In this document: piece after piece, positions 33,937 to 60,252 of the stretch
How positions within the stretch are numbered: position 1 is the stretch's first letter
Layout: each line of letters starts with the position of its first letter
IMG/VR virus record: IMGVR_UViG_3300042298_002704
DNA: 64,000 nt
Direction: 5' to 3' (one strand)
From: a virus
Lineage: Duplodnaviria; Heunggongvirae; Uroviricota; Caudoviricetes
Position numbers and translations under genes: made by a program
Notes under the pieces: model-generated
Told to the model about the DNA's origin: nothing
The model's database searches: none
The model's input: only the letters and a program-made list of their open reading frames with translations

Positions 33937-33949
33937 AACATTTGGTTAA

Positions 33950-34150: not shown

Positions 34151-34160
34151 TTTTTAGATG

Positions 34161-34436: not shown

Positions 34437-34923
34437 TTAAAAACCACAATAAAAAGACCTCTCAAAGATACAAACTTGTGGTTAGAAAAGCACAAAACAA
34501 AGTTTTATACCCTTCATTTGTTCTTAGGCAGTGTGGCTATATAGCACTTTTCATGGCGTTTTACAGTACGGGAAATTAACTACTTTCAACGTTTAAGGTT
34601 TGAAACCTGAGTGTAGTTGTTTTTATGTCGATTTCCCATCTGCCCAACAAAACTTTTTACCTTGATCCTCAGTCATACATGAAAAGTTTCGTAGCCAACT
34701 CAACCTTTTTTCAACCACTTCAAGGTTGGTTTTTGCGCGGTGGTAACTGACGGTAACGATCCGACTTTTCAGGATTTTCAGTCCTGCACATTGACCATCA
34801 ATGTTAAGTTACCAAAATGAGCAGCGTTATTGTAAATTTTTTTAATAGTATCAATTTGTTGTTATCTTGGTCCGACAATCAAGGGCTTGTTACCAATTTA
34901 CAAAATCATATCGGCCTTACTCT

Positions 34924-34963
34924 TGGTGACGTAGCCGGAATCGAACCGCGCTATCTGAACTAC
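34924..34963 (-). ncRNA. tRNA-like 3' minihelix with encoded CCA
   Basis: …GCGG-TTCGATT-CCGG-CTACGTC-A-CCA. Upstream body is unstructured and AT-rich. Confidence 0.3.
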
Positions 34964-35040
34964 TTATTTTTTAAGCCCTCTATTCTAATAGACCTTAGAC
35001 TTTAAATCCTCATTCAGCCCTTTTACGCCATTTAATCTTG

Positions 35041-35115
35041 CATCTGTACGGGATTCGAACCCGCGTTTCCCGCTCCCGGGCGCTTTGACCGCTAAACTAA
35101 CAGACTCCTATCGAA
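35041..35115 (-). ncRNA. GC-rich tRNA-like element (good T-arm and acceptor, non-canonical body)
   Basis: Acceptor AGTCTGT/ACAGATG. T-arm GCGGG-TTCGAAT-CCCGT. Body CCCGGGAGCGGG does not give an anticodon arm. Confidence 0.25.
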
Positions 35116-35181
35116 TATTCAACTTCGTGTCAGCTTGGCTGATTATCCGCTACTCCGTTCCCCCTGACAAGGTACTTGTTT

Positions 35182-35256
35182 TGGCGCACCATCAAGGACT
35201 TGAACCTCGAACCCTCACTTTAACAAAGTGCCGCTCTACATTGGAGCTAATGGCGC
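35182..35256 (-). tRNA. tRNA-Asn (anticodon GTT), CCA encoded
   Basis: Acceptor GCGCCAT/ATGGTGC (G3-U70). D stem GCTC/GAGC. Anticodon stem CACT/AGTG, loop TTGTTAA. T-arm CGAGG-TTCAAGT-CCTTG, then GCCA. Confidence 0.55.
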
Positions 35257-35373
35257 AATTTTAAATAACGAACCTTTCCCAGAACGAAATTGAATTACGG
35301 ATACTGTGATTTTTACACTTCGAGCCGTTGGCTCCGACTTCAATAGTACGCAAACCCGCATTCGTTATTTATA

Positions 35374-35400
35374 ATACAAAGGTAAAAACATTTTTTGTAA
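35374..35400 (-). promoter_or_regulatory. tRNA-island promoter copy 1 (TACCTTTG type)
   Basis: ATTTATAATACAAAGGTAAAAACATTTTT, directly repeated at 35536-35570. Lies upstream (on the - strand) of tRNA-Asn. Confidence 0.45.
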
Positions 35401-35535
35401 ATAATAGGTCTGGTGCGTTTCCGTTAAACCCGCGTATTCCTTGTCGTTTTTACGACTCATCCAGAAGTAACTGTTACCTTATGCGCTTTAAAGAATTCAG
35501 GGCCGACAGTAAGGTTTTAACCTTAGTTTCCTACT

Positions 35536-35570
35536 TCCTATTATTTACAATACAAAGGTAAAAACATTTT
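35536..35570 (-). promoter_or_regulatory. tRNA-island promoter copy 2
   Basis: ~30-nt direct repeat of the 35374-35400 element. Confidence 0.45.
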
Positions 35571-35611
35571 TGATAACCACCAAATTATTTTTTACCGTTA
35601 ACATTCCGTTT

Positions 35612-35709
35612 AGACGTTTGTTTAGGAATCGAACCTAAAAATCTTCACATAATTAAATGTGGTCTTGTACCTAGGATTCGGTTGTTTTACCAATTAAACT
35701 AACAAACGT
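35612..35709 (-). ncRNA. Over-long (98 nt) tRNA-like element
   Basis: Acceptor ACGTTTG/CAAACGT. T-arm TTTAGG-TTCGATT-CCTAAA. D-like GTTT..AAAC. Internal CACAT/ATGTG hairpin. Length is inconsistent with a standard tRNA. Confidence 0.3.
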
Positions 35710-35942
35710 TTTTAAAAAATGAACCTGTGAAGTTGACTTTACTTCCTTATTCATTACCGACAATGTTTAATATTTCATGCGTTCAGGACGCACTCATCTG
35801 TCGTTTTCATCAACTCTTTTCAGAGTAGGTTCAAAATGCAGTCCAGTATAAGTCCCATTAGCATAGTATTTTCTTTGGCGATATTTACCGAACTTTATAA
35901 AGGTTCCATACCTAATCGGGAAGTCACCTATAACCCACCTCG

Positions 35943-36026
35943 TGGGAGCAAAAGGATTCGAACCTCTGTGTCTGGTTAGGAACCTGATTTACAGTCAGGT
36001 GCAATCGACCGCTCTGCCATACTCCC
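35943..36026 (-). tRNA. tRNA-Tyr (anticodon GTA), type II
   Basis: Acceptor GGGAGTA/TGCTCCC. Anticodon stem CCTGA/TCAGG, loop CTGTAAA. Long variable arm. T-arm AGAGG-TTCGAAT-CCTTT. Confidence 0.65.
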
Positions 36027-36399
36027 GAAAATTACTCAAAAAACCGAATAACTTTTTTGTCATTCTGACGGCGTTTTTTGGCTGTCTGTTTTTTGATCCA
36101 ACGGCGAGCGTGTTTACACCATTCGCCATTCATTTTCATGTTAGTTGCGTTCATAATATTAAGTTTAGTTTATCTGAAAGCGTTTAAGGATTTTTTTGTT
36201 TAATCATTTACGTCTACAACCTACTTGCTTTGTGGCCACTTGGACTGACTACCAAGAACTCGTGACTATCAATCATCGCGACGTTAATTAAACATCCTCA
36301 CTCCGTTTAACCATACGGAAATGGTTTAATTTCTTAGTACAAAGGTAAGTAAACTTTTTCAATCTGCCAAACCTTTTAACAACTTATTAACTTTTCTTT

Positions 36400-36532
36400 T
36401 TTCTTGTTTTCGGTCGTAATACTTGGGACTTTTATGAGTCCGGGTAAAAGTCTTGACCGGAGTTCCTTCCCATTCTTTGAGAATGTTGTGGTAGGAGGGT
36501 TTTTGAATTTGAATTTTAGTTTTCTGTTTCAT
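36400..36532 (-). CDS. Small basic ORF (~44 aa)
   Basis: ATG at 36532. Lys-rich. Below the ORF-track size cutoff. Confidence 0.2.
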
Positions 36533-36547
36533 TTCCGTTGTAATAAA

Positions 36548-36583
36548 AATGTGCCATAAAGGTACAATCCTCTAAGGCACATT
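36548..36583 (-). terminator. Putative terminator after the 36692-36985 gene
   Basis: AATGTGCC…GGCACATT stem. A-run on the + strand gives a T-run on the - strand. Confidence 0.35.
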
Positions 36584-36691
36584 TCCAAATGTTTTTACAG
36601 TATTAACAACTGGTTAACATAGGCAGTGCCTCGGCTTATTGGATAAATAAAATCGTTCTTGTTTTTTCATACACATAAATATCCAAAATTT

Positions 36692-36985
36692 TTAGAAAAC
36701 CTTTTTCAGGTCATGTGAATAAACAGCGCATTTATCTCCGTTTGTCCATTCGACTATTGACATTGGAACTTTTATTCCAAATAACTGCTCCAAAGCAAGT
36801 TGGTGCGTTTGTTCAGTGATAAAACCATAAGAACCACATTCGGGAATATCATACGAATAAATGTCGTTGTTGTTTTCGACTTTTAACCGAACCAAATTGC
36901 CTACTTCGAACGTAGGTTCTTCTTGTTTAGGTTCTATAACTTTGGATTTTTTCATAGATTTAAAAAGTGGTGGATATAAGTGCAA
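36692..36985 (-). CDS. Hypothetical protein
   Basis: 97 aa. Followed by a hairpin terminator at 36548-36583. Confidence 0.5.
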   Translation of the reverse strand: MHLYPPLFKSMKKSKVIEPKQEEPTFEVGNLVRLKVENNNDIYSYDIPECGSYGFITEQTHQLALEQLFGIKVPMSIVEWTNGDKCAVYSHDLKKVF

Positions 36986-37019
36986 TTATACCCACCCTAT
37001 TATCATGTCCAGTACATTT

Positions 37020-39131
37020 TTAAATCCAACTTTTTCCAGTTACGGCTGGGGCAGTAGTTAAACCTTGGGTTAAATCTATGTCTACAATCGGAACTGAATT
37101 AAGCGTTTCTTCTGTCATCATTCTTGCAACCTGTTCCCACGTAGTATTTTCATCAAAAACAATATCGGCTTCTTCTTTTGTTTTCACAACCGAACCTGCC
37201 AATAAATCGATGATATGGCCTTGGGCAAGTTTTTTCCAATTAACTTCCTCTTTACCGTCATCCAAGATAACAAACTTTTCCAAGAATGTTCTCATCTTGA
37301 TTACATCAGAGGCACTTGCAACAATGTTGTTCGTATCCAAAGCAACGTCTAAATAAACCAAGTTCTTAGTCGGAACGTGAACTGCGCACAAATAAGCGGT
37401 CTTTGAATTTGACGTTATTTTTGTCGCGTGTTCGACTGTTTCAGGTAACCAATGGTTGTTTCTTTCTGGTTTAGAACGTTGCATCCAACCACAAAGAACA
37501 CCCTCATTTGGCCATTTATTGAAGTTTGGTCCGCGAAAAATTCGAGCGTCAAAAACAACCCATTCAACTCCGTCCAAATCATTCAAGTTTAGATCCAAGT
37601 ATTCTGCGTTTTTATACGCATATCCGGTATTGTCCCCCGAATAAGTAATCGAGGTTCCGAATTTATGATCCCCGTTCCAACCAACTTTAACAACTGAATT
37701 GTCTTGATTGATTACAAAGGCAGACAAATCAATGTCGTGTTTTTCTACCCAGTGACAATAAACTCGTAAAGTTTTGTCTTCTGGAAGTTTTTCAACTGTT
37801 CCGATTGCTTTACTTGAAATTGAAAAACTTGATGCTCTATTGTTGGTTGCTAATGGAGAATAATACAAAGAACGGCCAATGAAAACTTTCTTAGTGTTTT
37901 TCATCTTAACTTTCTTGTAAATTTGAACCATCAACTTGCCTCGAATTTCCTCAACTACCTCAGAAGGCAATGCTTCCAATGCTCCGAAAGTTGAAACATT
38001 GCTTTTGTTCTGGTTAGCCAAAACAACGGCACGATCTTTCTCTTGGTCACGGTCGGAAAAATAATTGTAAAGGGTTACCAATTGTTCAAAAGTTGGTTCC
38101 AGTTTTACAAATTCGTCGATTGCGACCATTCCGAAGACTTGAAACAATTGATTCATTCTTCTCATGTAAACACCTTTGCGTTTTGCAAGTAAATTGAAGA
38201 TAGTAACATCTTTATTTTTAATTGCGAGTTCCAACCTTGAATTGAACGTCTTCAACTCTTTCGAGTTGTTCCGTAATTTCCACGCAAATGATGCAAGAAT
38301 TGGAAATAACCGTTTATTTTCAGAAGTCAACGGATTCAGATAAAACAAAACTCGCAACCAAACTTCGCGATATGTTTTGAAACTTTCCTCCAAGTCATAA
38401 CACTCATTTAAAGTACGCAAAAGCGCATTTTTAACTGAACGTTTTGGCTGTTTAAATTTAGTTTTATCTTTCAAACCTTCGTCTCCGCCACAATATGCAG
38501 CATAAATACGCAAAACATCAGTAGCGGAACGAACTGGAAGTTCTTTGCCCAAATCCAAATAACGCTTACCGATGTAAGCCTTGGTTTCTTTGAATGAAAT
38601 GCGATTAAATTCCAATTCAGGGGCAAGGCCGTTATCAATAAACCAGTCGACAATTTCTTTATCCCATTTAGAAATTGAACTTCCAGAATAGACGATATCA
38701 GTGAAAATTGAATCGAATTGACGTTCAGTTAACAAAGAAATTTCTTTGTAATTGACATCTTCCAACGCAAATTCGCGCTTCATAAATTCACTGTCTTCTG
38801 GCCGCCAAGTTCCAAATGACCAATAATGAGAAATTGCGTTCCAAACAAATTCTTCATGAGAAAGTGCTTGAACTGATTGAGGGAAATTTCGATAAATTGG
38901 TTCATAACCACTTTCACCGACAATAGTTTTCAAACCCTTACAAAGATCGTTGTAGACTTCTGTAAGTGTTTGTTGATCTTGTTTACCGAGAGCAATGTGA
39001 AGTTGCTCAGAACATACAAATCCGTATTTAAATAGTTCAGTTTGGATTTGCATTGCAAGTAATCTGTTACTTTCGGTTCCTTCATTTAGGAACAAACCTT
39101 TCCGCTTTTGAAAGGAAATAAAATGTTTCAT
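37020..39131 (-). CDS. Large protein of unknown function (703 aa) embedded in the tRNA island
   Basis: Single long ORF with an ATG start. I recognise no catalytic motif (no Walker A, no HNH, no DxD). Flanked by tRNA-Arg and a tRNA-like minihelix. Confidence 0.7.
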   Translation of the reverse strand: MKHFISFQKRKGLFLNEGTESNRLLAMQIQTELFKYGFVCSEQLHIALGKQDQQTLTEVYNDLCKGLKTIVGESGYEPIYRNFPQSVQALSHEEFVWNAISHYWSFGTWRPEDSEFMKREFALEDVNYKEISLLTERQFDSIFTDIVYSGSSISKWDKEIVDWFIDNGLAPELEFNRISFKETKAYIGKRYLDLGKELPVRSATDVLRIYAAYCGGDEGLKDKTKFKQPKRSVKNALLRTLNECYDLEESFKTYREVWLRVLFYLNPLTSENKRLFPILASFAWKLRNNSKELKTFNSRLELAIKNKDVTIFNLLAKRKGVYMRRMNQLFQVFGMVAIDEFVKLEPTFEQLVTLYNYFSDRDQEKDRAVVLANQNKSNVSTFGALEALPSEVVEEIRGKLMVQIYKKVKMKNTKKVFIGRSLYYSPLATNNRASSFSISSKAIGTVEKLPEDKTLRVYCHWVEKHDIDLSAFVINQDNSVVKVGWNGDHKFGTSITYSGDNTGYAYKNAEYLDLNLNDLDGVEWVVFDARIFRGPNFNKWPNEGVLCGWMQRSKPERNNHWLPETVEHATKITSNSKTAYLCAVHVPTKNLVYLDVALDTNNIVASASDVIKMRTFLEKFVILDDGKEEVNWKKLAQGHIIDLLAGSVVKTKEEADIVFDENTTWEQVARMMTEETLNSVPIVDIDLTQGLTTAPAVTGKSWI

Positions 39132-39301
39132 TTAATGAAATTTAAAAAGTGAATAATCTTTGAAGGTTGTTTAGAATGAAATGTAGTCATGTAGTAACCT
39201 TCAAAATGTTTCAGTTTGTTTTTTTATTTTCGACTAATCTCGAAAAGTAATTTACGGCGCGTCTACCAGTTTCGCCACTCCCTGCGTTTTGAATTTATTA
39301 G

Positions 39302-39342
39302 GCAGGGAGGCAGGAATCGAACCTGCAATGTACCGGCTCCCA
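39302..39342 (-). ncRNA. tRNA-like minihelix (acceptor plus T-arm only)
   Basis: TGGGAG-CCGGTACATT-GCAGG-TTCGATT-CCTGC-CTCCCTG. No D or anticodon arms. Confidence 0.3.
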
Positions 39343-39375
39343 ATGCAGTAACTTTTCAAATGTGTCAAAAAATTG

Positions 39376-39448
39376 TGATCCCGGCAGAATTCGAATCTGC
39401 AACTTATTCATTAGAAGTGAATTACTCTATCCGTTGAGTTACGGGACC
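39376..39448 (-). tRNA. tRNA-Arg (anticodon TCT)
   Basis: Acceptor GGTCCCG/CGGGATC. D stem ACTC/GAGT. Anticodon stem ATTCA/TGAAT, loop CTTCTAA. T-arm GCAGA-TTCGAAT-TCTGC. Confidence 0.75.
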
Positions 39449-39642: not shown

Positions 39643-39906
39643 TTAGTGTTTCATTATTTCGTTATTATTGCCCGAACCCGCAAGGTTCCCGATCAGTAGA
39701 AATAAACCAGCAAGAACAAAAAATCCCATACCGACTTTAATAAAAAATTGATCGTTTGGATTTACGTTCATTACGATAAACCCGCCAATCAAAACTGAAA
39801 CAAATGCCAGCAAGGGAGCAGCAGTTTTGATTTTGGCAGTTTCTTCATTTTTATGCTCTACATAGCGATTGTACGCTTTGCGATCTTCCTTTGTCAATTT
39901 TCTCAT
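39643..39906 (-). CDS. Small two-TM membrane protein
   Basis: AAPLLAFVSVLIGGFIVMNV and MGFFVLAGLFLLIGNLAG hydrophobic segments. Confidence 0.5.
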   Translation of the reverse strand: MRKLTKEDRKAYNRYVEHKNEETAKIKTAAPLLAFVSVLIGGFIVMNVNPNDQFFIKVGMGFFVLAGLFLLIGNLAGSGNNNEIMKH

Positions 39907-42928: not shown

Positions 42929-43315
42929 TCATATATTTTTAGATTTAAAAAGTTTGTGACATTTATCAGGTTGAATATCTTCAATGGTCTGTCGACGACC
43001 TACGCCAATCATCCAAGTATTCAAAGTCATAACTGAATTTGGATAGATCGGATCATGAACTTCATCATATACGATGGTATATGAAGTTGGTTCCCAATCT
43101 TTGGGAACGGATGCATAAAAAATTATACAAAGCAGACACCAATCAGAATCTTGAACTTCGCGCCAAAAAACATCTTTAAAAGGAACTCCGATTTCTTTTG
43201 CAAATTTAGTTGCGCCTTCTTTTAGATTCCTAACAGCATCCGCGACATTTAAAGTTTGCATATAACCAGCATTATATGCGACCATCGAACTGTATGTGAA
43301 CAAAGATAATGTCAT
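42929..43315 (-). CDS. Hypothetical protein
   Basis: 128 aa. ATGA overlap with the upstream gene. Confidence 0.5.
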   Translation of the reverse strand: MTLSLFTYSSMVAYNAGYMQTLNVADAVRNLKEGATKFAKEIGVPFKDVFWREVQDSDWCLLCIIFYASVPKDWEPTSYTIVYDEVHDPIYPNSVMTLNTWMIGVGRRQTIEDIQPDKCHKLFKSKNI

Positions 43316-43950
43316 TGTTGAGTTTGATTTTTATATTGATATTGATATTCACATTCTCCCGGAAGGAAATAAGCATACGCCCTGCAAAATTCCGGATATT
43401 GCGCTTTAAATTCTTTAACGGCATCTTTGCAGTCGAACTCGTTAAAATATTGACCATAATGTACTACCCAATAATCTTTGATCTCTCGGGTACTTCCGTC
43501 TTTATATTTTTGAGTCAATGAACCTTTTGGAAGTTTGGTACACATGGAACCATCTGGACGTGAACCCGGAGGTTGAATCAAAAGTTCCATCCTGATAGTC
43601 CAATACCCACCAGTCGTTCTACCGGGACGCTGGCCGAAGCGTTGATTTGAAATAACGACCGTATCGCGACTCAAAACAGTCGTTTCGGCCTTACAATTAT
43701 CAGCGTCCCAACTTGTTTCTGAAACGACTCTGACGCGTTTCTTGACTTCTTGGTAACCTGAAACTGGACTATAAACAAGTTCGCCAATCGTTCCATAATT
43801 CGATTTCGCATCGCATGGGTCGGGAGTCAGTGGAGATTGCATTGAATATTGCAAAGGAAATTCAAAACGCTGAATCAACTCTTCACATTGGGCATTTAAG
43901 TCACCAAAGGTTAGTCCGATTAGACTAAGAATTAAAATCGTAATTTTCAT
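43312..43950 (-). CDS. Secreted Cys-containing protein
   Basis: Signal peptide MKITILILSLIGLTFG. Eight Cys. Confidence 0.55.
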   Translation of the reverse strand: MKITILILSLIGLTFGDLNAQCEELIQRFEFPLQYSMQSPLTPDPCDAKSNYGTIGELVYSPVSGYQEVKKRVRVVSETSWDADNCKAETTVLSRDTVVISNQRFGQRPGRTTGGYWTIRMELLIQPPGSRPDGSMCTKLPKGSLTQKYKDGSTREIKDYWVVHYGQYFNEFDCKDAVKEFKAQYPEFCRAYAYFLPGECEYQYQYKNQTQQ

Positions 43951-50168: not shown

Positions 50169-50411
50169 TTATTTCCAATCTATGTTATAGAACATTATAG
50201 TTTCTCCTGTTTCATAATCGTATTCCATTGTTGTATGAACGAGGAAACCATCTTGTTTTAGTTTTTGAATCATTGGTTCGTTTAATCTATATCTGGGTAA
50301 GGAAATGGAATAGTTTCCTTTTTTTGCTTCTTTTTTAAGGAACCTTAACATTTGATGATATTCGCTTTTACTTTCATCTGCTAAGGTTCTGAACTTTTGG
50401 GCTTTATTCAT
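50169..50411 (-). CDS. Small protein, tandem paralog 2
   Basis: KEAKKGNYSISLP…QKLKQDGFLV…MFYNIDW. Confidence 0.45.
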   Translation of the reverse strand: MNKAQKFRTLADESKSEYHQMLRFLKKEAKKGNYSISLPRYRLNEPMIQKLKQDGFLVHTTMEYDYETGETIMFYNIDWK

Positions 50412-50748
50412 TCTTTAATTTAAAGTTTAACCATGTGTCATGGTTTGTTTGGTATTTTATTTTTATTGAATGAACCTTGACGTTTGCATCGAACCAAAAC
50501 GTCTGCTCATCTTGTCCAGAATTGATTATTTGGGGTTCTGGTGCATTGTTTATTGTTATCCATACCAAACCTTCAATCCAACGATCAAATTCAACTGAGG
50601 TTAAATTTATGGGATTACGAAAGGTCATAACAATGTTATGTTCCTCTAACTGGGAATCAGGTAACTGAACGTGAAATTCTTGCAACTCCTGACCGTGGGT
50701 TAGAGTTGGTAGGAAAAATAACAGTAAAATTTTCAGGATTGTTTTCAA
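50404..50748 (-). CDS. Secreted protein
   Basis: Signal peptide MKTILKILLLFFLPTLTHG. Confidence 0.5.
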   Translation of the reverse strand: MKTILKILLLFFLPTLTHGQELQEFHVQLPDSQLEEHNIVMTFRNPINLTSVEFDRWIEGLVWITINNAPEPQIINSGQDEQTFWFDANVKVHSIKIKYQTNHDTWLNFKLKNE

Positions 50749-50957
50749 GCAGTTCTGATTAAATTTTCGTTGTCATCATTACAAACGAACACTTCGCCGA
50801 CTTCTACACCATTACCCTTCCAGTTTTCAGTAATTGGTAATGTAGTTTCCTCTGCTTCAATAATTTGAATTAAATGAATTCCAGTGTGTCTGGTGAGTTC
50901 ATCCGAATAACAAGTTGTTGTATCTGTTACTGGATTAAAATAAACGTAAACTTTCAT
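50745..50957 (-). CDS. Hypothetical small protein
   Basis: 70 aa. ATGA overlap. Confidence 0.4.
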   Translation of the reverse strand: MKVYVYFNPVTDTTTCYSDELTRHTGIHLIQIIEAEETTLPITENWKGNGVEVGEVFVCNDDNENLIRTA

Positions 50958-51889
50958 ATTATAGGTTGATTTTGTTTAATTTTTTCAATTATTTTCGTAT
51001 CGAACCTTTGCATTATTTCACTGTAACCGTAGTAAAAATAATCAAGATTGGATTTGCAAATATCATTTTCCTTTGATTCCTCATCGGTTAGAACCTTTGG
51101 AACCCATTCAATCATATTGTCCAGCGTTCCTGCCCACTGAAATGAACCCAAGGGTTGATACCGTTCGTAATCTTTTTTACTCAACGGTTTACCAAGTTGA
51201 GCCTTTAATACTGGATTCTTTGCTTCCAGTCTTAATAACCAACTTAACAAACTATTTTGTCCTTTTAATGACCAAATCATCCAACTGAGATTATAAAGGG
51301 CATAATGCGGATAAATCAATTTTTGATAAATCCATTTCTTCCACTTTGGTTGCGGTGTTAGTTTTGTTTGTGGTGTTATTTTTTTTACTTGTAAAATGAG
51401 TCTCAATATGAAATTCCAAGGAACGGTAAATAAAAACAACAAAAAGTTCAGTAAAAAGAAACTTTCTCTTAAAATGAACCTTTTAATGAAGTTTCTCTCT
51501 ATTTCGGCTTTCAAAGTTTTTTGCCACAACCAAAAGTCCAATGTTTGCCAATAACGTCTTGAAAGTTGAAGTGGTAAATTATCCAATATCCACTTCAATT
51601 CTACATAATCCCTGTTCAAATACAAGGCCAATATAATCGCAGAAACATGATCTCTTGACATCGTTTCAGCACCCTCATTCGGATACCGATAAAATTGGAC
51701 GTATCCATCGTCACGCAGTTTAACGCATCGAAGTAATGTCTCTTTTAACCAAGGAACATTCGGATGAAAGATGTAAAAAAACGCATTTCTTCCGATGGAA
51801 TCTCCTTTGGACCAAGGAGTTCCCTCTTCCAACGCAATTAGATTTTCATCAAAACGCCAAAACGTTTTTTGGTTATATGGGCTGATCAT
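50954..51889 (-). CDS. Hypothetical protein (311 aa) with an internal hydrophobic segment
   Basis: Long ORF with FFLLNFLLFLFTVPW. Confidence 0.55.
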   Translation of the reverse strand: MISPYNQKTFWRFDENLIALEEGTPWSKGDSIGRNAFFYIFHPNVPWLKETLLRCVKLRDDGYVQFYRYPNEGAETMSRDHVSAIILALYLNRDYVELKWILDNLPLQLSRRYWQTLDFWLWQKTLKAEIERNFIKRFILRESFFLLNFLLFLFTVPWNFILRLILQVKKITPQTKLTPQPKWKKWIYQKLIYPHYALYNLSWMIWSLKGQNSLLSWLLRLEAKNPVLKAQLGKPLSKKDYERYQPLGSFQWAGTLDNMIEWVPKVLTDEESKENDICKSNLDYFYYGYSEIMQRFDTKIIEKIKQNQPII

Positions 51890-52294: not shown

Positions 52295-52417
52295 TTAATA
52301 ATATTTTGAGTCTTCTCCAGCCTTGTCAAATATTGCAAATCCAAACTCTCCGAAATAAGTCAGAGCAAAGACTGCAACCAACCAAATAAAAATGTAAAGG
52401 TAAAAAAAGTTTTTCAT
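52295..52417 (-). CDS. Small membrane peptide (~40 aa)
   Basis: MKNFFYLYIFIWLVAVFALTYF. Trimmed so it does not overlap tRNA-Met. Confidence 0.3.
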   Translation of the reverse strand: MKNFFYLYIFIWLVAVFALTYFGEFGFAIFDKAGEDSKYY

Positions 52418-52422
52418 AATAG

Positions 52423-52495
52423 TGGACCGTACTGGACTTGAACCAGTGGCTCTCGCGTTATGAGCGCGGCACTCTACCAACTGAGTTAACGGTCC
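52423..52495 (-). tRNA. tRNA-Met (anticodon CAT)
   Basis: Acceptor GGACCGT/ACGGTCC. D stem ACTC/GAGT. Anticodon loop CTCATAA. T-arm ACTGG-TTCAAGT-CCAGT. Confidence 0.75.
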
Positions 52496-52608: not shown

Positions 52609-52926
52609 TTATTCGCAATTACACGCTGACGGGTAAATTTCCATAAATTTTTTCAAATTTACCGGAGTGTTTGGATCGTTCAAAACTCGTTCTTGTGATT
52701 GAACAAATTCCCAGTTCAGTTCGTCGGGACAACCCCAAACTTCTGTAACAAGAGTATCAGAATATAACACAAACGTTTCATCTCCAGACTCATTGCTACT
52801 CGGAGGGCACCATGTATAACTGAATTGGATGTATGTGCATTTTGCACGATAGTTGTCGCAGTCAACTTTCTGCTTTTGACAGGCAATGGTTGAAAGAACG
52901 ATGATAAAGAAAAACAGTTGTTTCAT
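52609..52926 (-). CDS. Small lipoprotein-like secreted protein
   Basis: Signal MKQLFFFIIVLSTIAC. Several Cys. Confidence 0.5.
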   Translation of the reverse strand: MKQLFFFIIVLSTIACQKQKVDCDNYRAKCTYIQFSYTWCPPSSNESGDETFVLYSDTLVTEVWGCPDELNWEFVQSQERVLNDPNTPVNLKKFMEIYPSACNCE

Positions 52927-52998
52927 TTTTTATTTGTTTTAATTACACCACAAAGATAAAAGTATTTATTTCAAATTTCCAAATGGATTAACAACTCA

Positions 52999-53583
52999 TT
53001 AACTACCTTGTTCATTTATAACTGAAAGCGTTCCTAAAAATCCAATCAATTTATTATTTACATCTCGCAATTGATATGCAACTCCATGAACTTTTTGAAA
53101 TTTACCAGACGGGAGAACAAAACGGTATTCCATATCAAAGTTTAAATCATTTTGAACACAACGATACCACTCTTCAAATACATCATCTTTTTCATCAGGA
53201 TGAATCCAATTAGACCAGTTATCTCCTTTTATTTCACCCTCAGTTCGACCTATTATTTTACACAAAGAACGATTGACATCTATACACTTTCCTCGTTCGT
53301 CACTTATCCAAGTTCCAAGTGGTAAGGATTTAATAATTGCTATCGTCTTTTGTTCCTGCAATGTTATCTTATCTTCGATCCTATTAATTGCATCTCTTAA
53401 AGTTGAACCGCCGTTTGGCCTAAATTCTTCTGCCATCTTTTGAATCTTTCCGTATAATTCCCTTCCTTCCTCATATCTTTGTTTTAACCAAAATTTCCAT
53501 AAAGCGCCGCCGACAATTCCAAATGGGGCTAAAAGTGAGAGCCATTCTTTTAGTACGATTAAAATTGATTTAAAAAATTCCAA
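52999..53583 (-). CDS. Membrane-anchored PAS-domain protein
   Basis: N-terminal TM (ILIVLKEWLSLLAPFGIVGGALW). PAS-like block WISDERGKCIDVNRSLCKIIGRTEGEIKGDNWSNWIHPDEKDDV…FVLPSGKFQKVHG. Confidence 0.55.
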   Translation of the reverse strand: MEFFKSILIVLKEWLSLLAPFGIVGGALWKFWLKQRYEEGRELYGKIQKMAEEFRPNGGSTLRDAINRIEDKITLQEQKTIAIIKSLPLGTWISDERGKCIDVNRSLCKIIGRTEGEIKGDNWSNWIHPDEKDDVFEEWYRCVQNDLNFDMEYRFVLPSGKFQKVHGVAYQLRDVNNKLIGFLGTLSVINEQGS

Positions 53584-53615
53584 AATGCGTGTCCTCTTAT
53601 TTTGATGATTGTTGA

Positions 53616-53866
53616 TTATTTCTTTTTTGACTTTTTAATGGGAGGAATTTTATCTGGATGCCAATCGATTAAAAGTTCATCCTCTTGACTGGTATTCCGC
53701 CAGTATTTTGGACTGAACTTCGAAATTTGTTTATCCTTGTCTATAAATATGGGAAATCCTGCGCTAAAACCTTTATAATAACCCAAGACTTCTTTTAATT
53801 GTGGATTTAACCACCAAACAAGATCATTTATTTGAGGTTTTGATTGCGGAAAAATTTGATATTTCA
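53616..53866 (-). CDS. Hypothetical small protein (trimmed start)
   Basis: Lys-rich C-terminus KKSKKK. Overlaps the amidase gene end. Confidence 0.35.
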
Positions 53867-54558
53867 TTATTTTGAATTTTTTCTCGAACGTACTTATCAA
53901 CTAAAAGTTTAAATTTACAAAACGCATTATCTTCTTGCTTTTGATTCCAATTTTGCTTGTAAAAGAATTTGGGACATTGCTTTCCGGAAACGTCATGGTG
54001 ACGTATAACTCTGCTAACGTCCGGAACCTTCCTGTATAGCGTTACGACTTTACCTTGTGCGGCAGACCATAATTGAACTGTTTCTAAACGAACAAACCCT
54101 TTATCAATCATTTGCCAAGCAATTGAACGGGCAGTCATATCAACGATTAGCGAATCGTTTCTGCCGCCGCCGAGGCACATTTCATAAGAAAGAGAATTTT
54201 CATTAAAAACTTTTCCCTTTAACCAAGGCTTAGGAATAAATCCGAACCATTTACGATCCCCGACTGCAAACGCAACTTCGGTTTCCGGAACACATTGAAT
54301 TATTTCTTCATCGTCAACTGCATAATGACAACCAGCATTTCTTGCTCTTTGTAAATACCGAGCATTCATTTCTGCATTTGCTTTTGGGTGAAAGTTTGCA
54401 GTATAATGAACGACTATATATTCAATTCGTTCTTTCCTTTTTCTTGTATGTTTGTCCAATATTTGACGGAAGGAAACTCCGCCAACGAAAAGTACAAATA
54501 TAAGTCCTAATATATATTTAACTTTGTGGGTTTTTAAATGTAAAATAATTTTTTTCAT
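53824..54558 (-). CDS. N-acetylmuramoyl-L-alanine amidase (Amidase_2) with an N-terminal signal anchor
   Basis: TM YILGLIFVLFVGGVSF. IVVHYTA, GCHYAVD, NSLSYEMC, RHHDVSGKQCP motifs. Confidence 0.7.
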   Translation of the reverse strand: MKKIILHLKTHKVKYILGLIFVLFVGGVSFRQILDKHTRKRKERIEYIVVHYTANFHPKANAEMNARYLQRARNAGCHYAVDDEEIIQCVPETEVAFAVGDRKWFGFIPKPWLKGKVFNENSLSYEMCLGGGRNDSLIVDMTARSIAWQMIDKGFVRLETVQLWSAAQGKVVTLYRKVPDVSRVIRHHDVSGKQCPKFFYKQNWNQKQEDNAFCKFKLLVDKYVREKIQNNEISNFSAIKTSNK

Positions 54559-54561
54559 CTC

Positions 54562-55131
54562 TTAGTCCTTTCCCATTGCTATCAATTTTTGAAGGTTTTC
54601 TTCTGTCATTTTATTAATCGTCGAATAATCATGATTCCAGCAAGCAAGTTCGAATTTTCTACGACGGGAATGACTTTTTTTGATGTCTTTATTTTTATTA
54701 CCGCAACCCCAACTTGCGCCACAACATCTTCCTAATTTTCGTCCATTCTTGGTTAAGCCTCTTGCATATGAGTACATTCGTAAAGCATTGTTTTTCAAAT
54801 CATCTTTATGTAAACGACCATACTTGTTAATTTCGTAAATCGTTATCTTAGTTGCTTCGTCAAATGTAACTTTACCATCCTTGGTATATTGTTTAATTTC
54901 ATGTCTACGAACCTGACCTTGGTCATTCCACCCGAAGCCAATTGAATATGCTTGTTTACCATTCACAAACCCGTCTTTATACCACCACGAGCGGTATCCT
55001 TCATTCGCTTTAATTTCCCATACCATAATTTGATATGGAGAATATTTTAATTTAGATTCGTCGCTGTTAGGTTTGTTGGCTGCAACGAGAGCAAATAAGC
55101 ATAACGAGCCAAAAATTATGCGTGTTTTCAT
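54562..55131 (-). CDS. Secreted GH24-type lysozyme (T4 lysozyme-like)
   Basis: Signal peptide MKTRIIFGSLCLFALVAA. WEIKANEGYRSWWYKDGFVNGKQAYSIGFG resembles the E…D…T/S-IG-G catalytic core of T4 lysozyme. Confidence 0.55.
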   Translation of the reverse strand: MKTRIIFGSLCLFALVAANKPNSDESKLKYSPYQIMVWEIKANEGYRSWWYKDGFVNGKQAYSIGFGWNDQGQVRRHEIKQYTKDGKVTFDEATKITIYEINKYGRLHKDDLKNNALRMYSYARGLTKNGRKLGRCCGASWGCGNKNKDIKKSHSRRRKFELACWNHDYSTINKMTEENLQKLIAMGKD

Positions 55132-55165: not shown

Positions 55166-55654
55166 TTATAGGGGGATTAATTTCTTATATACCCAATACA
55201 AATCTTCCATCGAACCTTCAAATGTTTGAAAATCAAATGGACTGACATCGAACTTGAATGCTCTATTTAGTTCCAATTCAAGTTCATGTAGTAATTTCAA
55301 CTCATGTTGGCAATGGGCTTCTGCCAGTTTTCTGTTTTCTTTATTCCACTTGGCTCTCCTGACAATGAACCAATCTTCAAAGGCTTCTTTACTTGCAAGT
55401 TTGTTTTTCTGTTTCCATTCAACTTGCTCGTGTTTGAAAAGTTGATTATTTTCTTCAACCATTTGTAAATATGGACTTTCATTAAATTCTCCGTTTCTAA
55501 TACGGTAAAGAATCAAATGTTCATTTTCTCCAAAAGGAACTTTCTTTAACTTCGGTTTTGAAGTAGTTTGACCTTTTCGCCAGTAATTAAATTGGTTGAA
55601 TGACATATAAATATCTTTTAAGATTTTCTTAACATTTGTAAGTAGTAATTTCAA
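55166..55654 (-). CDS. Hypothetical protein
   Basis: 162 aa. Confidence 0.5.
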   Translation of the reverse strand: MKLLLTNVKKILKDIYMSFNQFNYWRKGQTTSKPKLKKVPFGENEHLILYRIRNGEFNESPYLQMVEENNQLFKHEQVEWKQKNKLASKEAFEDWFIVRRAKWNKENRKLAEAHCQHELKLLHELELELNRAFKFDVSPFDFQTFEGSMEDLYWVYKKLIPL

Positions 55655-55798
55655 ACGAAATAAACTACAATTTTAACAAGCATTAACAAAAGTTTAACAA
55701 ATAAAAAACCCCATCCGACTTGTGAAAGTGAACGGGGACATAATAAGTAATTTATTTATTACATTGGCGGAAAATTACAATACTCTGATTTTTTTGGT

Positions 55799-56363: not shown

Positions 56364-56520
56364 TTTGTTTTTCCTTAATTTGGTTATGAAGTTTTTGACG
56401 ATAATTTTCAAGTTCTTCCAGAAAATTACTCGTTTCAATGTAAGTGAAATCTGCCAACCCATACTCACTCAGGAGTTGTTCCAAGGTCAGATTCTTCAAG
56501 TCTTTTTCTAAATTCAGCAT
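56326..56520 (-). CDS. Hypothetical small protein (trimmed)
   Basis: MLNLEKDLKNLTLEQLL…. Confidence 0.35.
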   Translation of the reverse strand: MLNLEKDLKNLTLEQLLSEYGLADFTYIETSNFLEELENYRQKLHNQIKEKQNEQASQSLGSPN

Positions 56521-57127
56521 TGTCTTTTTCGTTTTTGGCGTGACGATATTCTGCCCGAACATAAGCCCAAGTTGGGTTGTCGCCGTGATCTCTGTTTTGC
56601 AGGCTCATATTTGGGCCGGTTTTATTGTAATATAAATAAGCGTGATTGAAACATACCAATTCCATGTTTTCCAATATGCAATTGTCTTTATTTCCATCTT
56701 TCCACATCAACATCAACGGAACTTTATAATCAGTTATTCGTCTTTCATTGAACCCGCAAATATGACATTCTTCAACCATCAAACCTTCTTCAATCAACAT
56801 TTGTTGAAGTTTTTCTTTACTATGAGTATGCTTCCGCCCATTAATAACTTCCAATGCAGTTGCTTTTGGAGCAGTAGAAGTGAAGACGTGGTTTCCTTTT
56901 TTATGAAGGTCAAATAAAGATTTTCCAGTTTCTTTATCAATGTATCTACTCGCATACTTGCGCCAAGTTTCTGGCCTAATCTTTAAATATTTAAAGGCTT
57001 GACGATTGTTTTCGGTAATCGACATAACATAGCGAACCTCTTCTTCCGTAAGGTTGTAAGATTTTCGAGTCCACACGCCTTTGTGTGGGTCTAATTTTTT
57101 ATCATTATAATCAAGTTCTCTATCCAA
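56465..57127 (-). CDS. Putative zinc-binding nuclease-like protein (HNH-like C..C/..CFNH)
   Basis: CHICGFNE … DGNKDNCILENMELVCFNHAYLY. Confidence 0.4.
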   Translation of the reverse strand: MDRELDYNDKKLDPHKGVWTRKSYNLTEEEVRYVMSITENNRQAFKYLKIRPETWRKYASRYIDKETGKSLFDLHKKGNHVFTSTAPKATALEVINGRKHTHSKEKLQQMLIEEGLMVEECHICGFNERRITDYKVPLMLMWKDGNKDNCILENMELVCFNHAYLYYNKTGPNMSLQNRDHGDNPTWAYVRAEYRHAKNEKDNAEFRKRLEESDLGTTPE

Positions 57128-57437
57128 GTTTAGCCTCCAAGCAATGAATAAACCAAGTAAGTGAAGAATAAAATAAACCAGTCCAAACCCATGAAATGGT
57201 TCCTATTTCTAAAAATTGCCCAACGTCAAACAAAAAGAATGCGACAAACCAACCTACCCAAACACCTGTGCAAAGGAAACAACCAAATAAATGCCCAATC
57301 CAACGTAACCCGATAAAATTCCTGTATTCCAAATCTCTCAACCATTTAAATAATGGAAATGTCGATTCGCTTATTATTTGGGTAATATTGTAAGTAATGA
57401 ATACGGAAAAAATAAGTTTGAATATTATAAAATTCAT
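57120..57437 (-). CDS. Membrane protein
   Basis: Three hydrophobic segments. Confidence 0.45.
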   Translation of the reverse strand: MNFIIFKLIFSVFITYNITQIISESTFPLFKWLRDLEYRNFIGLRWIGHLFGCFLCTGVWVGWFVAFFLFDVGQFLEIGTISWVWTGLFYSSLTWFIHCLEAKLG

Positions 57438-58799: not shown

Positions 58800-58975
58800 C
58801 ATGTAGTGGTTTCATTCGTCACTGTTTTAATTGCTTCTTTAAATCTTTCTAAAAACCAATTCGCTTCAAGTTCACTTTCTTGTGCTTGTAATAAAAAGGA
58901 TTGTTTTCCTATTGTTATTTTCGGATGCCAACCTTTTAATGATTTTTGAAGTGAATATTTAATTTCAGGTTTCAT
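58800..58975 (-). CDS. Small ORF (~58 aa), ATGA-coupled to the glycosyltransferase gene
   Basis: ATG at 58975 overlaps the GT2 stop. Confidence 0.3.
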
Positions 58976-60252
58976 TTCAAAGTTATGGGTTCATTTTTAC
59001 AAACAATCAATTCTTTTTCATACGTTTGAAGTGAACGTATTGTTATTTTTAAATTTCCGAGTTCAAATTCCCCAAGTTCGTTTGCTTGGGTTATGATATC
59101 ACTCAAATGTTGAATATTTATAAAGTCAGTTTGATTGAACCTTTGACCGTCAATTTCAACAATTACGTCGGTTTCACACGCACCATACTCCATCTTTGTT
59201 TTCAAATCAAACTTCGTATTATGTTGTTCACGTTTAACATAAGTATCAATAATTTCTTGTTCCAATTCGACATAAACCAATCTGTCGCACCAAGGTTCTA
59301 ATGCTGAAATAAAATCATAACCACAATTTCGAAGAATAAAGCCGATATTTCGTCTATGTTTAGGCATTATAGGATGATGCCATTCGTCATGTTTCGGAAA
59401 TGATTGCCATTTCCTGATGAAATTTAACATTGAATTTCTGTTGTTAAATTCCCATTCTTCTGAACTTTTGCCCGGAGTTGTTAAATATGGATTAAACCTT
59501 GAACCTCTACACGTCATGTGATAACAATATCCTTCACGAGTTTGAACAAATTCAGTTCCGTTTAATAAAAATCTATTCCACAGATCATCGTCTTCTTTGG
59601 ATTGTGGTGTAAACAAGTAATCGTGACCGTTTATTTCTAAAAATTCATCTTTACAAACTGTCCACGGAGCAAAAATTCCAGATGTGGTTCCTTTCAACGG
59701 AACATTAAATTTCATAGGTTGATTTGGATTGAAATTACAAGTATATTCCCAGTTATCTAATCTTGACCAAACATCTAACTGAGCAAATAAACCGTCCTCA
59801 TCAAAACTTTCAGGTTCAATTCCAAAATTACCAACTATCTTTTCCTTCCCACCCGGGTGAAGTGGCGGCTCTATTCGTGTAAGCGACACTATACGGTTTT
59901 TTATCAAATTCTCCCCATCATACATCAACTTTTCAATTTCATCCAATGCTCCCGGACAAAGATACATATCACAATGCCAAACCATTACCAAATCAGTTTC
60001 AACAATGTCTTCGACAATTTTATTGTAAAGAATTGTAAGACCTAACCGTTCTGGTCCTGAATTGACAATATATTTAAAATAGGGGTCTTTTTTGGAAAGT
60101 TCCTCATACCATTCTAATGTTCCATCAGTACAAGCATCAACTGCCGAGCAAATCCAAACTTCGTGGTTTCCTTGATTCTTCCTAATTGAATCGTAACTCC
60201 ACTTAAAATATTTTAAGTTATTTCTGTTGGGGACAATAAGTGAAATTTTCAT
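58972..60252 (-). CDS. Family 2 glycosyltransferase (GT-A fold)
   Basis: ISLIVPNRNN … AVDACTDGT resembles the GT2 N-terminal and DxD region. Confidence 0.65.
   Translation of the reverse strand: MKISLIVPNRNNLKYFKWSYDSIRKNQGNHEVWICSAVDACTDGTLEWYEELSKKDPYFKYIVNSGPERLGLTILYNKIVEDIVETDLVMVWHCDMYLCPGALDEIEKLMYDGENLIKNRIVSLTRIEPPLHPGGKEKIVGNFGIEPESFDEDGLFAQLDVWSRLDNWEYTCNFNPNQPMKFNVPLKGTTSGIFAPWTVCKDEFLEINGHDYLFTPQSKEDDDLWNRFLLNGTEFVQTREGYCYHMTCRGSRFNPYLTTPGKSSEEWEFNNRNSMLNFIRKWQSFPKHDEWHHPIMPKHRRNIGFILRNCGYDFISALEPWCDRLVYVELEQEIIDTYVKREQHNTKFDLKTKMEYGACETDVIVEIDGQRFNQTDFINIQHLSDIITQANELGEFELGNLKITIRSLQTYEKELIVCKNEPITLK

Follow-up and report, generated by a model that had tools for sequence, protein, structure and literature searches.

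The five consecutive minus-strand genes between positions 52609 and 55131 of this window (the whole stretch of 64,000 nucleotides analyzed here) raise two questions: whether they form the lysis cassette of a phage that probably infects Bacteroidota, and what part a membrane-bound PAS-domain protein would play in it. The initial annotation read them as a candidate lysis module, and all five open reading frames are present at the coordinates it gave. We propose, with a probability of roughly 0.55, that the unit is the envelope-lysis cassette, or the major part of one, of an uncultured lineage of large aquatic myoviruses most likely infecting Bacteroidota. The features that bear on this proposal are the following.

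55703 to 55737, minus strand: terminator-like hairpin with a U-run, upstream of the cassette
55166 to 55654, minus strand: first gene of the unit, an open reading frame for a hypothetical soluble protein
54562 to 55131, minus strand: divergent GH24-like muramidase with an N-terminal Sec-type hydrophobic segment, assigned through fold and transitive profile links
53824 to 54558, minus strand: N-acetylmuramoyl-L-alanine amidase (Amidase_2) with an N-terminal transmembrane (TM) anchor, assigned through Pfam Amidase_2 and phrog_670
53616 to 53867, minus strand: small basic protein of 83 aa with a Lys-rich tail and no TM segment, a conserved open reading frame
52999 to 53583, minus strand: single-pass membrane PAS protein, assigned through PAS_3, TIGR00229 and phrog_9869
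52609 to 52926, minus strand: small Cys-rich lipoprotein of 105 aa with a PROSITE-type lipobox
57120 to 57437, minus strand: DUF1360-like polytopic membrane protein, 1–3 kb upstream of the cassette across loci
50954 to 51889, minus strand: glycoside-hydrolase-like protein with an (alpha/alpha)6-toroid fold and no signal peptide
25935 to 26825, minus strand: second Amidase_2 protein (Pfam, 3.6e-7) with no signal peptide or anchor

The gene order is kept in 25 related loci at protein identities of 44–98%, so the arrangement is not a product of chance, and all five open reading frames are conserved among related metagenomic phages. Lysozyme and amidase genes are adjacent in 22 of the 22 related loci long enough to check. 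The PAS gene follows this enzyme pair in 12 loci and is missing from about five that retain the pair (L004, L011, L022, L023, and L024), so it is not essential to the two enzymes; the PAS and lipoprotein genes are accessory, occurring in 12 loci and four lineages, respectively. The cassette genes all lie on one strand, each with an SD-like site ahead of it, and are spaced by a 3-nt gap between the lysozyme stop codon and the start of the amidase gene, then an overlap, then a 32-nt gap. Upstream, the minus strand of 55690–55760 folds into a 12-pair stem followed by UUUUUUAUUU (MFE −17.5 kcal/mol, with z = −3.67 and none of 200 shuffles folding equally well), and the hairpin is probably the 5′ boundary of the transcription unit. 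The first gene, whose true start is likely Met17 at ~55606, is conserved in closer relatives only; in L001, L002, L005, L014, and L019 tblastn finds its homologues (43–53% identity) immediately ahead of the lysozyme gene, and family searches with its product returned no match. A scan for sigma-70 promoters was uninformative (34 sites against 37.8 expected). Candidate Bacteroidetes TAnnTTTG motifs were listed.

The source probably belongs to an uncultured lineage whose members are large (~80–230 kb) aquatic myoviruses. A Bacteroidota host is likely because nearly all predicted signal peptides of these phages other than that of the muramidase carry Gln at +1, the signal-peptide Q-rule of Bacteroidota (PMC5837995), and because the nearest tail sheath is that of a Flavobacterium phage. 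Both observations agree with the host proposed in the initial annotation. Megablast of the 50–60 kb region against cultured phages returned no match, nor did defence-system models run against the cassette proteins.

The gene at 54562–55131 had been described as a GH24 lysozyme with a signal peptide. Fold and catalytic triad bear out the GH24 part of this call, and a hydrophobic N-terminus is present, whereas no direct family match was found. The protein has no Pfam match at E ≤ 0.1, no PHROG or NCBIfam match, and no match among PDB sequences, whether searched as a single sequence or as a 39-sequence profile. Its confident AlphaFold model shows the two-lobed T4-lysozyme/GH24 fold with a Glu-Asp-Ser triad. 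Within the motif EG-x7-D-x9-S-IG-x-G, all 39 sequences have E44 and D53, and S63 is conserved in at least 90% of them; hhalign pairs these residues with T4L E11/D20/T26 in an alignment that is not significant by itself (E 0.04). Searched against 1.84 billion proteins, the lysozyme profile (A1) reaches P0280 (1e-14), P0304 (1.7e-5), P0305 (2.6e-5), and P0308 (3.8e-4), all of which match PF00959, P0308 above the cutoff (23.9 bits; cutoff 22.3) and the others just under it. By structure and transitive profile links only, the protein can thus be held to represent a very divergent GH24 subfamily. Members are rare: the 1.84 billion representatives contain 53 clusters of them, and no relative was found in 50,697 phage records or, on the bacterial side, in 185,579 species genomes. 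Conserved Cys pairs lie in a C-terminal insertion, and the invariant Cys136 and Cys143, like the six further Cys residues of the lipoprotein, fit an oxidizing compartment. The N-terminal segment, with 17–44% Gly/Ala/Ser/Thr, is not SAR-like, and its Ala-Asn junction, invariant in 39 of 39 sequences, deviates from the Q-rule, an indirect hint against cleavage; the segment may serve as a signal peptide or stay uncleaved as an anchor. Here and below, topology and signal-peptide calls are based on hydropathy and charge counts, used in place of SignalP and DeepTMHMM.

For the adjacent gene, the initial call of an Amidase_2 with an N-terminal TM segment and an HHDVSGKQCP motif was confirmed by Pfam (PF01510, 3.9e-14, 53.5 bits against a cutoff of 26), by hydropathy, and by alignment with T7 lysozyme. 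The protein also matches the phrog_670 endolysins (9.6e-28) and, in the PDB, XlyA (4e-7) and PlyL; against cultured phages it matches endolysins of Gram-positive phages only, at ~30% identity. Residues H50, Y79, H188, K192, and C194 align with H17, Y46, H122, K128, and C130 of what we take to be the T7 lysozyme sequence, in which H122/K128/C130 are covered by the HHDVSGKQCP segment. The His/His/Cys zinc ligands and the catalytic Tyr and Lys are invariant in 17 of 17 family members, and by these residues the enzyme is predicted to be catalytically intact.

The PAS protein was correctly described as TM-anchored, having one N-terminal hydrophobic span and PAS profiles above the gathering score: PAS_3 (1.2e-13, 51.5 bits, cutoff 25.6), PAS (3.5e-10, 40.3 bits, cutoff 22.6), and TIGR00229 (8.7e-11, 42 bits, cutoff 22.9). 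From the N-terminus it consists of a short tail, a TM segment at ~14–29, a basic KFWLKQR junction, a helix, the motif PNGGSTLRDAINRIE, and the PAS domain at ~82–190. This motif is invariant and of the phrog_9869 type (PNGGSxLRDAINRIE), and of the 19 columns that do not vary in the family 12 fall within it. In the PAS region the only invariant columns are G98, N104, E117, G120, W123, G181, and G184; none is a cofactor-binding residue such as a LOV Cys or haem His, and no Cys or His is conserved in the alignment. The closest solved structure is 3nja, the PAS domain of a GGDEF protein. A count of 3–5 Lys/Arg over the first 15 residues past the TM segment, against a net charge of ~0 before it, suggests that the protein is N-out and C-in, with a cytoplasmic PAS domain. 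Its presence in such a context is unusual, as had been supposed: no homologue occurs among 50,697 phage records, and our literature search found no relevant report of PAS domains in phage lysis.

Evidence for a lysis context comes from the membrane-proximal part of this protein. It matches phrog_9869 with E 2.6e-6 at full length and 6.3e-7 for residues 1–86 (profile positions 64–94), and hhalign of the N-terminal 86 residues (A4) against the actinophage proteins (A5) gives a probability of 97.5% and E 5e-12 over 69 columns. By these scores the N-terminal ~80 residues, anchor plus motif, are homologous to a rare actinophage family, phrog_9869, whose genes lie next to an endolysin or holin gene in three of three phages with usable annotation: directly beside lysin A (Arthrobacter phage Sonali gp22), an amidase (Thermobifida phage P1312_040), and an endolysin-holin pair (Streptomyces phage mu1/6 gp52). 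In the fourth, BIM BV-113, the neighbours are unannotated and a candidate lysin has no PDB match. Sonali gp22, P1312_040, and mu1/6 gp52 also match phrog_15431 'holin', more weakly. In the window the phrog_9869-type PAS gene is placed two genes after the amidase gene. The lysis context claimed in the initial annotation is likely, and it gains independent support from this homology between the TM and juxtamembrane region and a family of endolysin or holin neighbours. The joining of a rare lysis-cassette motif to a sensor hints at host lysis under the control of a signal but is no proof of it.

Two small genes complete the cassette. The Lys-tailed gene at 53616 is real and conserved, but its start, first placed at 53900, moves to an ATG at 53867 on the evidence of homologues, which begin at MKY/MRY. 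It and the amidase gene overlap at the 3′ end of the latter, an arrangement that is conserved, and at 34–55% identity the small gene follows the amidase gene in L001, L002, L005, L011, L012, L014, L016, L019, and L022–L024; family searches with the protein found no match. The lipoprotein call at 52609 was borne out by the lipobox FFIIVLSTIA/C, in which the Cys of STIA/C is the first of seven. Its gene occurs only in loci with a PAS gene, after which homologues are encoded in L005/L014, L016, and L019 (blastp 1e-38 to 1e-8; four lineages). Kinship with 228-aa secreted Cys-rich proteins in PAS-less loci was rejected, the match being not significant and mostly confined to the signal peptide. The 72-nt gap upstream of the lipoprotein gene contains a Bacteroidetes-type −7 motif, TAtcTTTG, which counts as weak evidence.

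We propose that the unit, which encodes two separate peptidoglycan hydrolases for different bonds, each with an N-terminal Sec-type hydrophobic segment, would rely on the host Sec system to bring both enzymes to or across the inner membrane, making a large holin pore unnecessary. A true hydrophobic anchor, together with a basic linker of 14 residues, would keep the amidase, and possibly the muramidase, at the membrane, so that the wall would be out of reach until something freed or activated the enzyme. The downstream PAS membrane protein is a candidate controller that resembles the Mu releasin in predicted topology and in position, and its cytoplasmic PAS domain might make release or activation depend on a cue from the cytoplasm. 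The Cys-rich lipoprotein, an optional component, may have a role at the outer membrane. A more specific and tentative version, to which we assign a low probability, makes the PAS-fused phrog_9869 protein a signal-responsive lysis timer in a holin-less, sensor-gated pathway of Bacteroidota phages: the PAS domain would respond to some host signal, such as the redox or energy state of the cell or a small metabolite, and the TM and PNGGSxLRDAINRIE module would trigger release or activation of the tethered amidase and muramidase.

The best surviving alternative, itself rather improbable, is that the unit remodels the envelope and lyses nothing. The exported muramidase and amidase would cut or modify host peptidoglycan locally during infection, for example to keep out superinfecting phages, reshape the cell, or reuse wall material, together with GT2-like and (alpha/alpha)6 hydrolase-like neighbours, while the signal-less amidase at 25935 and an unrecognized holin lysed the cell. 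Known holin and spanin families matched nothing in the window, other small TM open reading frames included, and none is recognized near the cassette. The suggested holin candidate at 57120–57437 did not hold up as a recognized holin: it is DUF1360-like instead, with a short, weakly charged C-terminus, invariant E24, C53xxC56, and W60, and no PHROG match. It is present in every locus reaching far enough upstream, and 11 of 13 family members (A3) match PF07098 DUF1360, with E 3.9e-5 at best and every score under or close to the gathering cutoff. DUF1360 is scarcely treated in the literature. In a two-component spanin, an outer-membrane lipoprotein works with a type II inner-membrane protein bearing a periplasmic coiled coil; in the cassette a lipobox protein follows a single-TM protein, but the soluble part of the latter is predicted to be cytoplasmic, the cassette proteins matched no spanin family, and the lipoprotein occurs in four lineages only.

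The surroundings also lend remodelling some weight. Close by are a GT2-like gene at 58972, the (alpha/alpha)6-toroid gene at 50954–51889 (a conserved downstream neighbour that may lie outside the cassette), an epimerase gene in L003, several secreted proteins in related loci, and many small genes; glycan-active and small genes of this kind could point to envelope remodelling. The gene at 25935–26825, described at first as a third hydrolase with a PG-binding and an amidase domain, keeps the Amidase_2 assignment (31 bits against a cutoff of 26) and loses the PG-binding domain, for which Pfam has no match at E ≤ 0.05. Its product has no hydrophobic N-terminus or segment, a single-protein scan gave one close relative only, and it is possibly a canonical cytoplasmic endolysin or a virion lysin. 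As a signal-less enzyme it could be the true endolysin, which counts against the cassette as the lysis unit; its gene, however, likewise has no adjacent membrane-protein gene. Two hydrolases acting on different bonds are, moreover, the usual recipe for wall destruction, and the homology of the PAS protein to endolysin and holin neighbours argues for the lysis cassette over remodelling.

A further alternative concerns the amidase alone and seems quite unlikely to us: that its catalytic domain faces the cytoplasm (N-out and C-in, or peripheral), leaving only the GH24-like enzyme in the periplasm. The amidase would then act on soluble muropeptides or precursors as AmpD does, or bind a cytoplasmic partner as T7 lysozyme binds RNA polymerase, and would gain access to the wall only once the membrane was damaged. 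Amidase_2 does take in cytoplasmic enzymes, AmpD and T7 lysozyme among them. Hydrophobic N-termini are conserved across both enzyme families, and the amidase span (residues 15–30) has a mean Kyte-Doolittle value of 1.7–2.9. In every homologue 5–8 Lys/Arg follow within 15 residues of the anchor, and the net charge there is no lower than on the N-terminal side; this speaks against efficient export of the catalytic domain, which is accordingly uncertain. SAR segments are uncharged and enriched in weakly hydrophobic residues. The amidase anchor is a true hydrophobic TM segment, and its 11–29% Gly/Ala/Ser/Thr, against 62% in P21 R and 50% in P1 Lyz (presumed reference sequences), led us to reject the amidase as a SAR endolysin, the analogy drawn in the initial annotation. 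The N-terminal tail, however, carries 2–7 Lys/Arg in the 17 family members, usually 4–7, which disfavours its own translocation; the closest relatives of the catalytic domain are phage endolysins, and the gene is translationally juxtaposed to that of the exported muramidase. Very unlikely is a set of five neighbours with no common function, the PAS gene being an unrelated signalling or auxiliary gene: the absence of PAS from about five loci, the restriction of the lipoprotein to four lineages, and the many small unrelated genes around the cassette would fit, but the PAS gene, where present, is always one or two genes downstream of the amidase gene (12 loci, identity down to ~60%), unrelated phages carry its N-terminal module in connection with lysis cassettes, and spacing is tight on one strand.

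To our knowledge, lysis in Bacteroidota phages is almost uncharacterized, and the cassette described here gives its study a definite object that is conserved and open to experiment. Standard annotation fails to recognize the GH24-like subfamily, which metagenome pipelines will therefore overlook. The conserved amidase anchor, basic on both flanks, is an unusual topology that could reveal a new way of keeping an endolysin inactive. The PAS protein fuses a sensor domain to a membrane module that adjoins endolysins in unrelated actinophages; should it control lysis, this would be one of the rare phage examples of a classical sensor domain tying the lysis decision to an intracellular signal, and would give the orphan phrog_9869 family, shared with actinophages, a first functional handle and role.

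Sec-dependent endolysins include the SAR type (P21 R, P1 Lyz, and Mu gp22) and the signal-peptide type (Oenococcus fOg44 Lys44). The cassette differs from these systems in having two separate enzymes, an amidase whose anchor has basic residues on either flank, and a lysozyme that is invisible to Pfam. With the GH24/PF00959 enzymes (T4 E, P22 gp19, and P21 R) the lysozyme shares the T4-lysozyme fold and catalytic motif, from which it departs by a 4-residue insertion between Asp and Ser/Thr and a Cys-rich insertion in the C-terminal lobe. In Mu, a holin-less phage, a membrane-tethered cytoplasmic protein controls release of the anchored endolysin; this releasin, gp25 (DUF2730), acts on the SAR endolysin gp22 (PMC9239132). 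The PAS protein resembles gp25 in its N-terminal TMD, predicted N-out and C-in, in its basic junction and helical cytoplasmic domain, in its gene position a few genes downstream of a membrane-tethered endolysin with a basic cytoplasmic tail, and in the lack of a recognized holin nearby. It differs in carrying the PAS domain and PNGGSxLRDAINRIE motif and in having as partner an amidase with a non-SAR anchor, and homology to gp25 was rejected (hhalign probability 0.5%; no PF10805 match). The phrog_9869 proteins of actinophages, whose hosts are Gram-positive Actinobacteria and whose sole lysis annotation is the weaker co-match to phrog_15431, share with the PAS protein a homologous N-terminal TM segment and HPNxGxSLRDAVxRIE motif and, as here, a gene beside an endolysin; at 91–147 aa they end just past the motif, whereas in this lineage a ~110-aa PAS domain is fused after it.

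We propose, with a probability of about 0.55, that the gene set around 54 kb is a lysis cassette, and its sequences point to a system in which endolysins depend on Sec, are tethered to the membrane and have a membrane regulator. All five minus-strand ORFs of the initial annotation are present:

54562-55131, minus strand, GH24-like muramidase
53824-54558, minus strand, amidase
true start 53867, minus strand, small Lys-tailed basic protein
52999-53583, minus strand, PAS protein
52609-52926, minus strand, lipoprotein

The genes are tightly packed in the window, each preceded by an SD-like site, and a stable hairpin with a U-run precedes the unit (z = -3.67). The small Lys-tailed ORF is conserved; in the window and in relatives alike, it overlaps the amidase gene at the latter's end. 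The lipoprotein assignment holds, with a lipobox of PROSITE type and another six Cys residues.

Mapping by tblastn across 25 related loci gave a conserved order: GT2-like gene, three small genes, DUF1360-like membrane protein, HNH-like protein, two optional genes, GH24-like muramidase, amidase, optional small basic protein, PAS protein, optional lipoprotein and (alpha/alpha)6 protein. In 22/22 loci extending past the muramidase gene, with identities as low as 44%, this gene adjoins the amidase gene. The PAS gene occurs in 12 loci, always one or two genes past the amidase gene. About five others whose downstream DNA is long enough to show it (L004, L011, L022, L023 and L024) lack it; it is thus dispensable in some lineages, which counts against the lysis reading. 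Four lineages carry the lipoprotein, each with the PAS gene. In PAS-less loci (L011 2322-3293 and its equivalents in L012 and L022), three genes follow the one for the small basic protein and encode a soluble protein of 51-63 aa, a single-TM protein of 40-62 aa and a secreted Cys-rich protein of 228 aa; they may be an alternative accessory set.

The window is a portion of a large tailed phage. Its plus strand encodes a tail sheath (phrog_23, 6e-69), virion proteins and the C-terminal part of NAMPT (16-828, plus strand; phrog_448, 1.6e-90), and a long minus-strand block starts at ~24 kb. The NAMPT (nicotinamide phosphoribosyltransferase) gene is one of the auxiliary metabolic genes characteristic of large phages. 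There are 18 tRNA genes, with a cluster of 17 at 30501-39448 (30.5 to 39.4 kb) and a tRNA-Met at 52422-52495 (minus strand), directly downstream of the lipoprotein gene. The latter overlaps a listed ORF (52295-52480) for which the only plausible product is a 40-aa single-TM peptide from 52417. The tRNA region also contains, at 31593-32405 (minus strand), the gene for an SPFH/Band-7 lipoprotein (…TGC↓TGCN; Pfam 4.6e-8 for the domain); its homologue in related locus L018 (8294-9115) follows the PAS gene at a distance of ~700 nt. No DNA-level relatives of the region at 50-60 kb were found among 50,697 deposited phage genomes; the nearest tail sheath is that of Flavobacterium phage vB_FspM_immuto, at 46% identity. 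Signal peptides in the window and related loci were assessed by heuristic scan and by eye, and almost every predicted signal-peptidase-I type signal places Gln at +1, after a small residue.

Predicted signals with Gln at +1 (arrow before +1)
Window, 43312 (ORF 43312-43950), DLNA↓Q
Window, 50404 (ORF 50404-50748), THG↓Q
L003, 8995, LNA↓Q
L004, 12028, AFG↓Q
L010, 6641, LYG↓Q
L011, 2607, LFS↓Q
L015, 105, LSA↓Q

Further predicted signal peptides of this kind lie at 31274-31570 of the window and 9046 of L001. Gln at +1 is the Bacteroidetes-specific Q-rule (PMC5837995), and obedience to it by these signals points, like the tail-sheath match, to a probable Bacteroidota host. The exception is the GH24-like family, with an invariant Ala-Asn.

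The amidase matches Amidase_2 (3.9e-14) and endolysin PHROGs (1e-27), and its residues H50, Y79, H188, K192 and C194, invariant in 17 relatives, fall in alignment on the zinc ligands and catalytic residues of T7 lysozyme, which bears out the original domain call. Export and topology readings for the amidase, muramidase and PAS families rest on hydropathy and charge counts. The amidase family anchor is an uncharged span of 16-24 residues with a mean Kyte-Doolittle value of 1.7-2.9, in which Gly, Ala, Ser and Thr make up only 11-29%, compared with 50-62% in the SAR domains of P21 R and P1 Lyz. By composition and hydropathy it is a true anchor rather than a SAR-like one, and the analogy to SAR endolysins drawn in the initial annotation is not upheld for the amidase. 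After the anchor, every homologue conserves a basic stretch, SF[RK]xI[LM]D[KR]..[KR]xR[KR], with 5-8 Lys/Arg per 15 residues; with a further 2-7 Lys/Arg in the N-terminal tail, orientation is not settled by the positive-inside rule.

Assignment of the neighbouring ORF to a signal-peptide GH24 lysozyme was the weakest of the earlier claims. The protein has no match in Pfam, PHROGs, NCBIfam or PDB, even with a 39-sequence profile, and its family comprises 102 unannotated homologues of about 190-210 aa. A confident AlphaFold2 model (pLDDT 94.3) retrieved T4 lysozyme or T4-lysozyme fusion proteins as all of its best 50 Foldseek matches. An EG-x7-D-x9-SIGFG motif, with E44 and D53 invariant in the family and S63 conserved in at least 90%, is paired by hhalign with E11/D20/T26 of T4 lysozyme, in an alignment not significant by itself. 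An exhaustive profile search recovered only 53 clusters among 1.84 billion representatives, the most distant of which match PF00959 (one above the gathering cutoff, three just below); relatives were found neither in cultured phages (50,697 records) nor in 185,579 species genomes. We conclude from profile and model that 54562-55131 encodes a very divergent, phage-restricted GH24-like enzyme, so that the assignment survives through fold, triad motif and a distant family link, and not through a direct family match. This subfamily is invisible to annotation pipelines. Its N-terminus is a hydrophobic segment of 15-23 residues with an invariant Ala-Asn end, then Lys/Arg; the junction agrees with the -3/-1 cleavage rule and departs from the Q-rule obeyed by other secreted proteins of these phages, and the segment may be cleaved or kept as an anchor. 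Conserved Cys pairs in the family favour an extracytoplasmic location.

Several PAS models match the PAS protein above their cutoffs, in agreement with its first description. Its near-neutral N-terminal tail and the K-x-W-L-K-K-R directly after the hydrophobic span predict an N-out, C-in protein with a cytoplasmic PAS domain, the usual location for PAS_3-type domains. In the PAS domain, the family conserves neither a Cys nor a His of the kind that marks LOV- or haem-type cofactor binding. The most conserved part of the family is PNGGS[TS]xRDAxNRIE, which holds 12 of its 19 invariant columns and persists at 30% overall identity. The sole PHROG match, phrog_9869 (2.6e-6), covers the segment between anchor and PAS domain, and tblastn gave weak actinophage matches to residues 1-86. 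The actinophage proteins so found are strong phrog_9869 members (2e-17 to 2e-32) that also match phrog_15431, 'holin', and all of them carry an N-terminal TM as well as the motif HELHPNxGxSLRDAVxRIE. This group is rare, with four distinct phages in 50,697 records, and neighbouring genes are readable in three: Sonali gp22 overlaps and lies directly upstream of lysin A, P1312_040 does likewise with an amidase, and in mu1/6 the gene for gp52 is the next one after those for endolysin gp50 and holin gp51. Profile-profile comparison of the PAS family with the actinophage group aligned 69 columns, among them the TM, at a probability of 97.5% (E 5e-12). This homology, together with the actinophage gene positions, makes the PAS protein a member of a lysis-cassette-associated membrane family, with a fused PAS domain, and gives it an independent tie to lysis cassettes.

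Family matches recognised no holin or spanin among the cassette proteins and small TM ORFs of the window. The suspected holin-like ORF at 57120-57437 (minus strand) instead encodes a polytopic DUF1360-like membrane protein that precedes the cassette in related loci L001-L023 and is conserved in every locus reaching that far, with invariant Glu24, Trp60 and a membrane-embedded Cys53-x-x-Cys56. From its CxxC, a role in thiol-redox chemistry, possibly linked to nearby Cys-rich exported proteins, seems likelier than one as a holin. Two small proteins with two hydrophobic spans each and no family match, at 18834-19082 (plus strand, 82 aa) and 39643-39906 (minus strand, 87 aa), are unrecognised holin candidates outside the cassette. 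The HNH/homing-endonuclease-like gene at 56465-57127 (minus strand; phrog_14736, 8e-9; PADLOC HEase, 2e-7) is found at an identical position in all related loci and so behaves as a fixed gene rather than a mobile endonuclease. The GT2-like glycosyltransferase gene at 58972-60252 (minus strand; Pfam score borderline at 23.6, cutoff 23.3) heads a conserved syntenic block, and a gene for an NAD-dependent sugar epimerase/dehydratase comes next in a TARA relative (L003 2444-3304). No cassette protein matches a defence-system model.

Against the lysis reading stand the lack of a recognised holin or spanin near the cassette, a second, signal-less Amidase_2 at 25935, and the basic post-anchor stretch, which allows a cytoplasm-facing amidase. 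For it stand the amidase, the PAS protein, the divergent GH24-like enzyme and the independent tie to lysis. The initial annotation is confirmed as an observation, and its reading as a lysis module is partly supported, in a more precise form. The two hydrolases are identified enzymes with intact active sites, conserved pairing and conserved hydrophobic N-termini, and the PAS-protein N-terminus is, by profile comparison, homologous to lysis-cassette proteins. In the lysis model, both hydrolases would be Sec-targeted, at least the amidase, with its linker of only ~14 residues, would be held inactive at the membrane, and a trigger would release or activate the enzymes. To the stronger reading, that the PAS domain itself gates lysis, we give a low probability. 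The cassette is of interest because it is directly testable.

Phage Mu has no holin, and its anchored endolysin requires the 'releasin' gp25, a cytoplasmic protein tethered to the membrane, whose gene lies a few genes further downstream; gp25 dependence is set by basic residues of the endolysin cytoplasmic tail (PMC9239132). Although gp25 and the PAS protein have no sequence relationship, the architecture here is parallel, and phage Mu is the nearest worked example.
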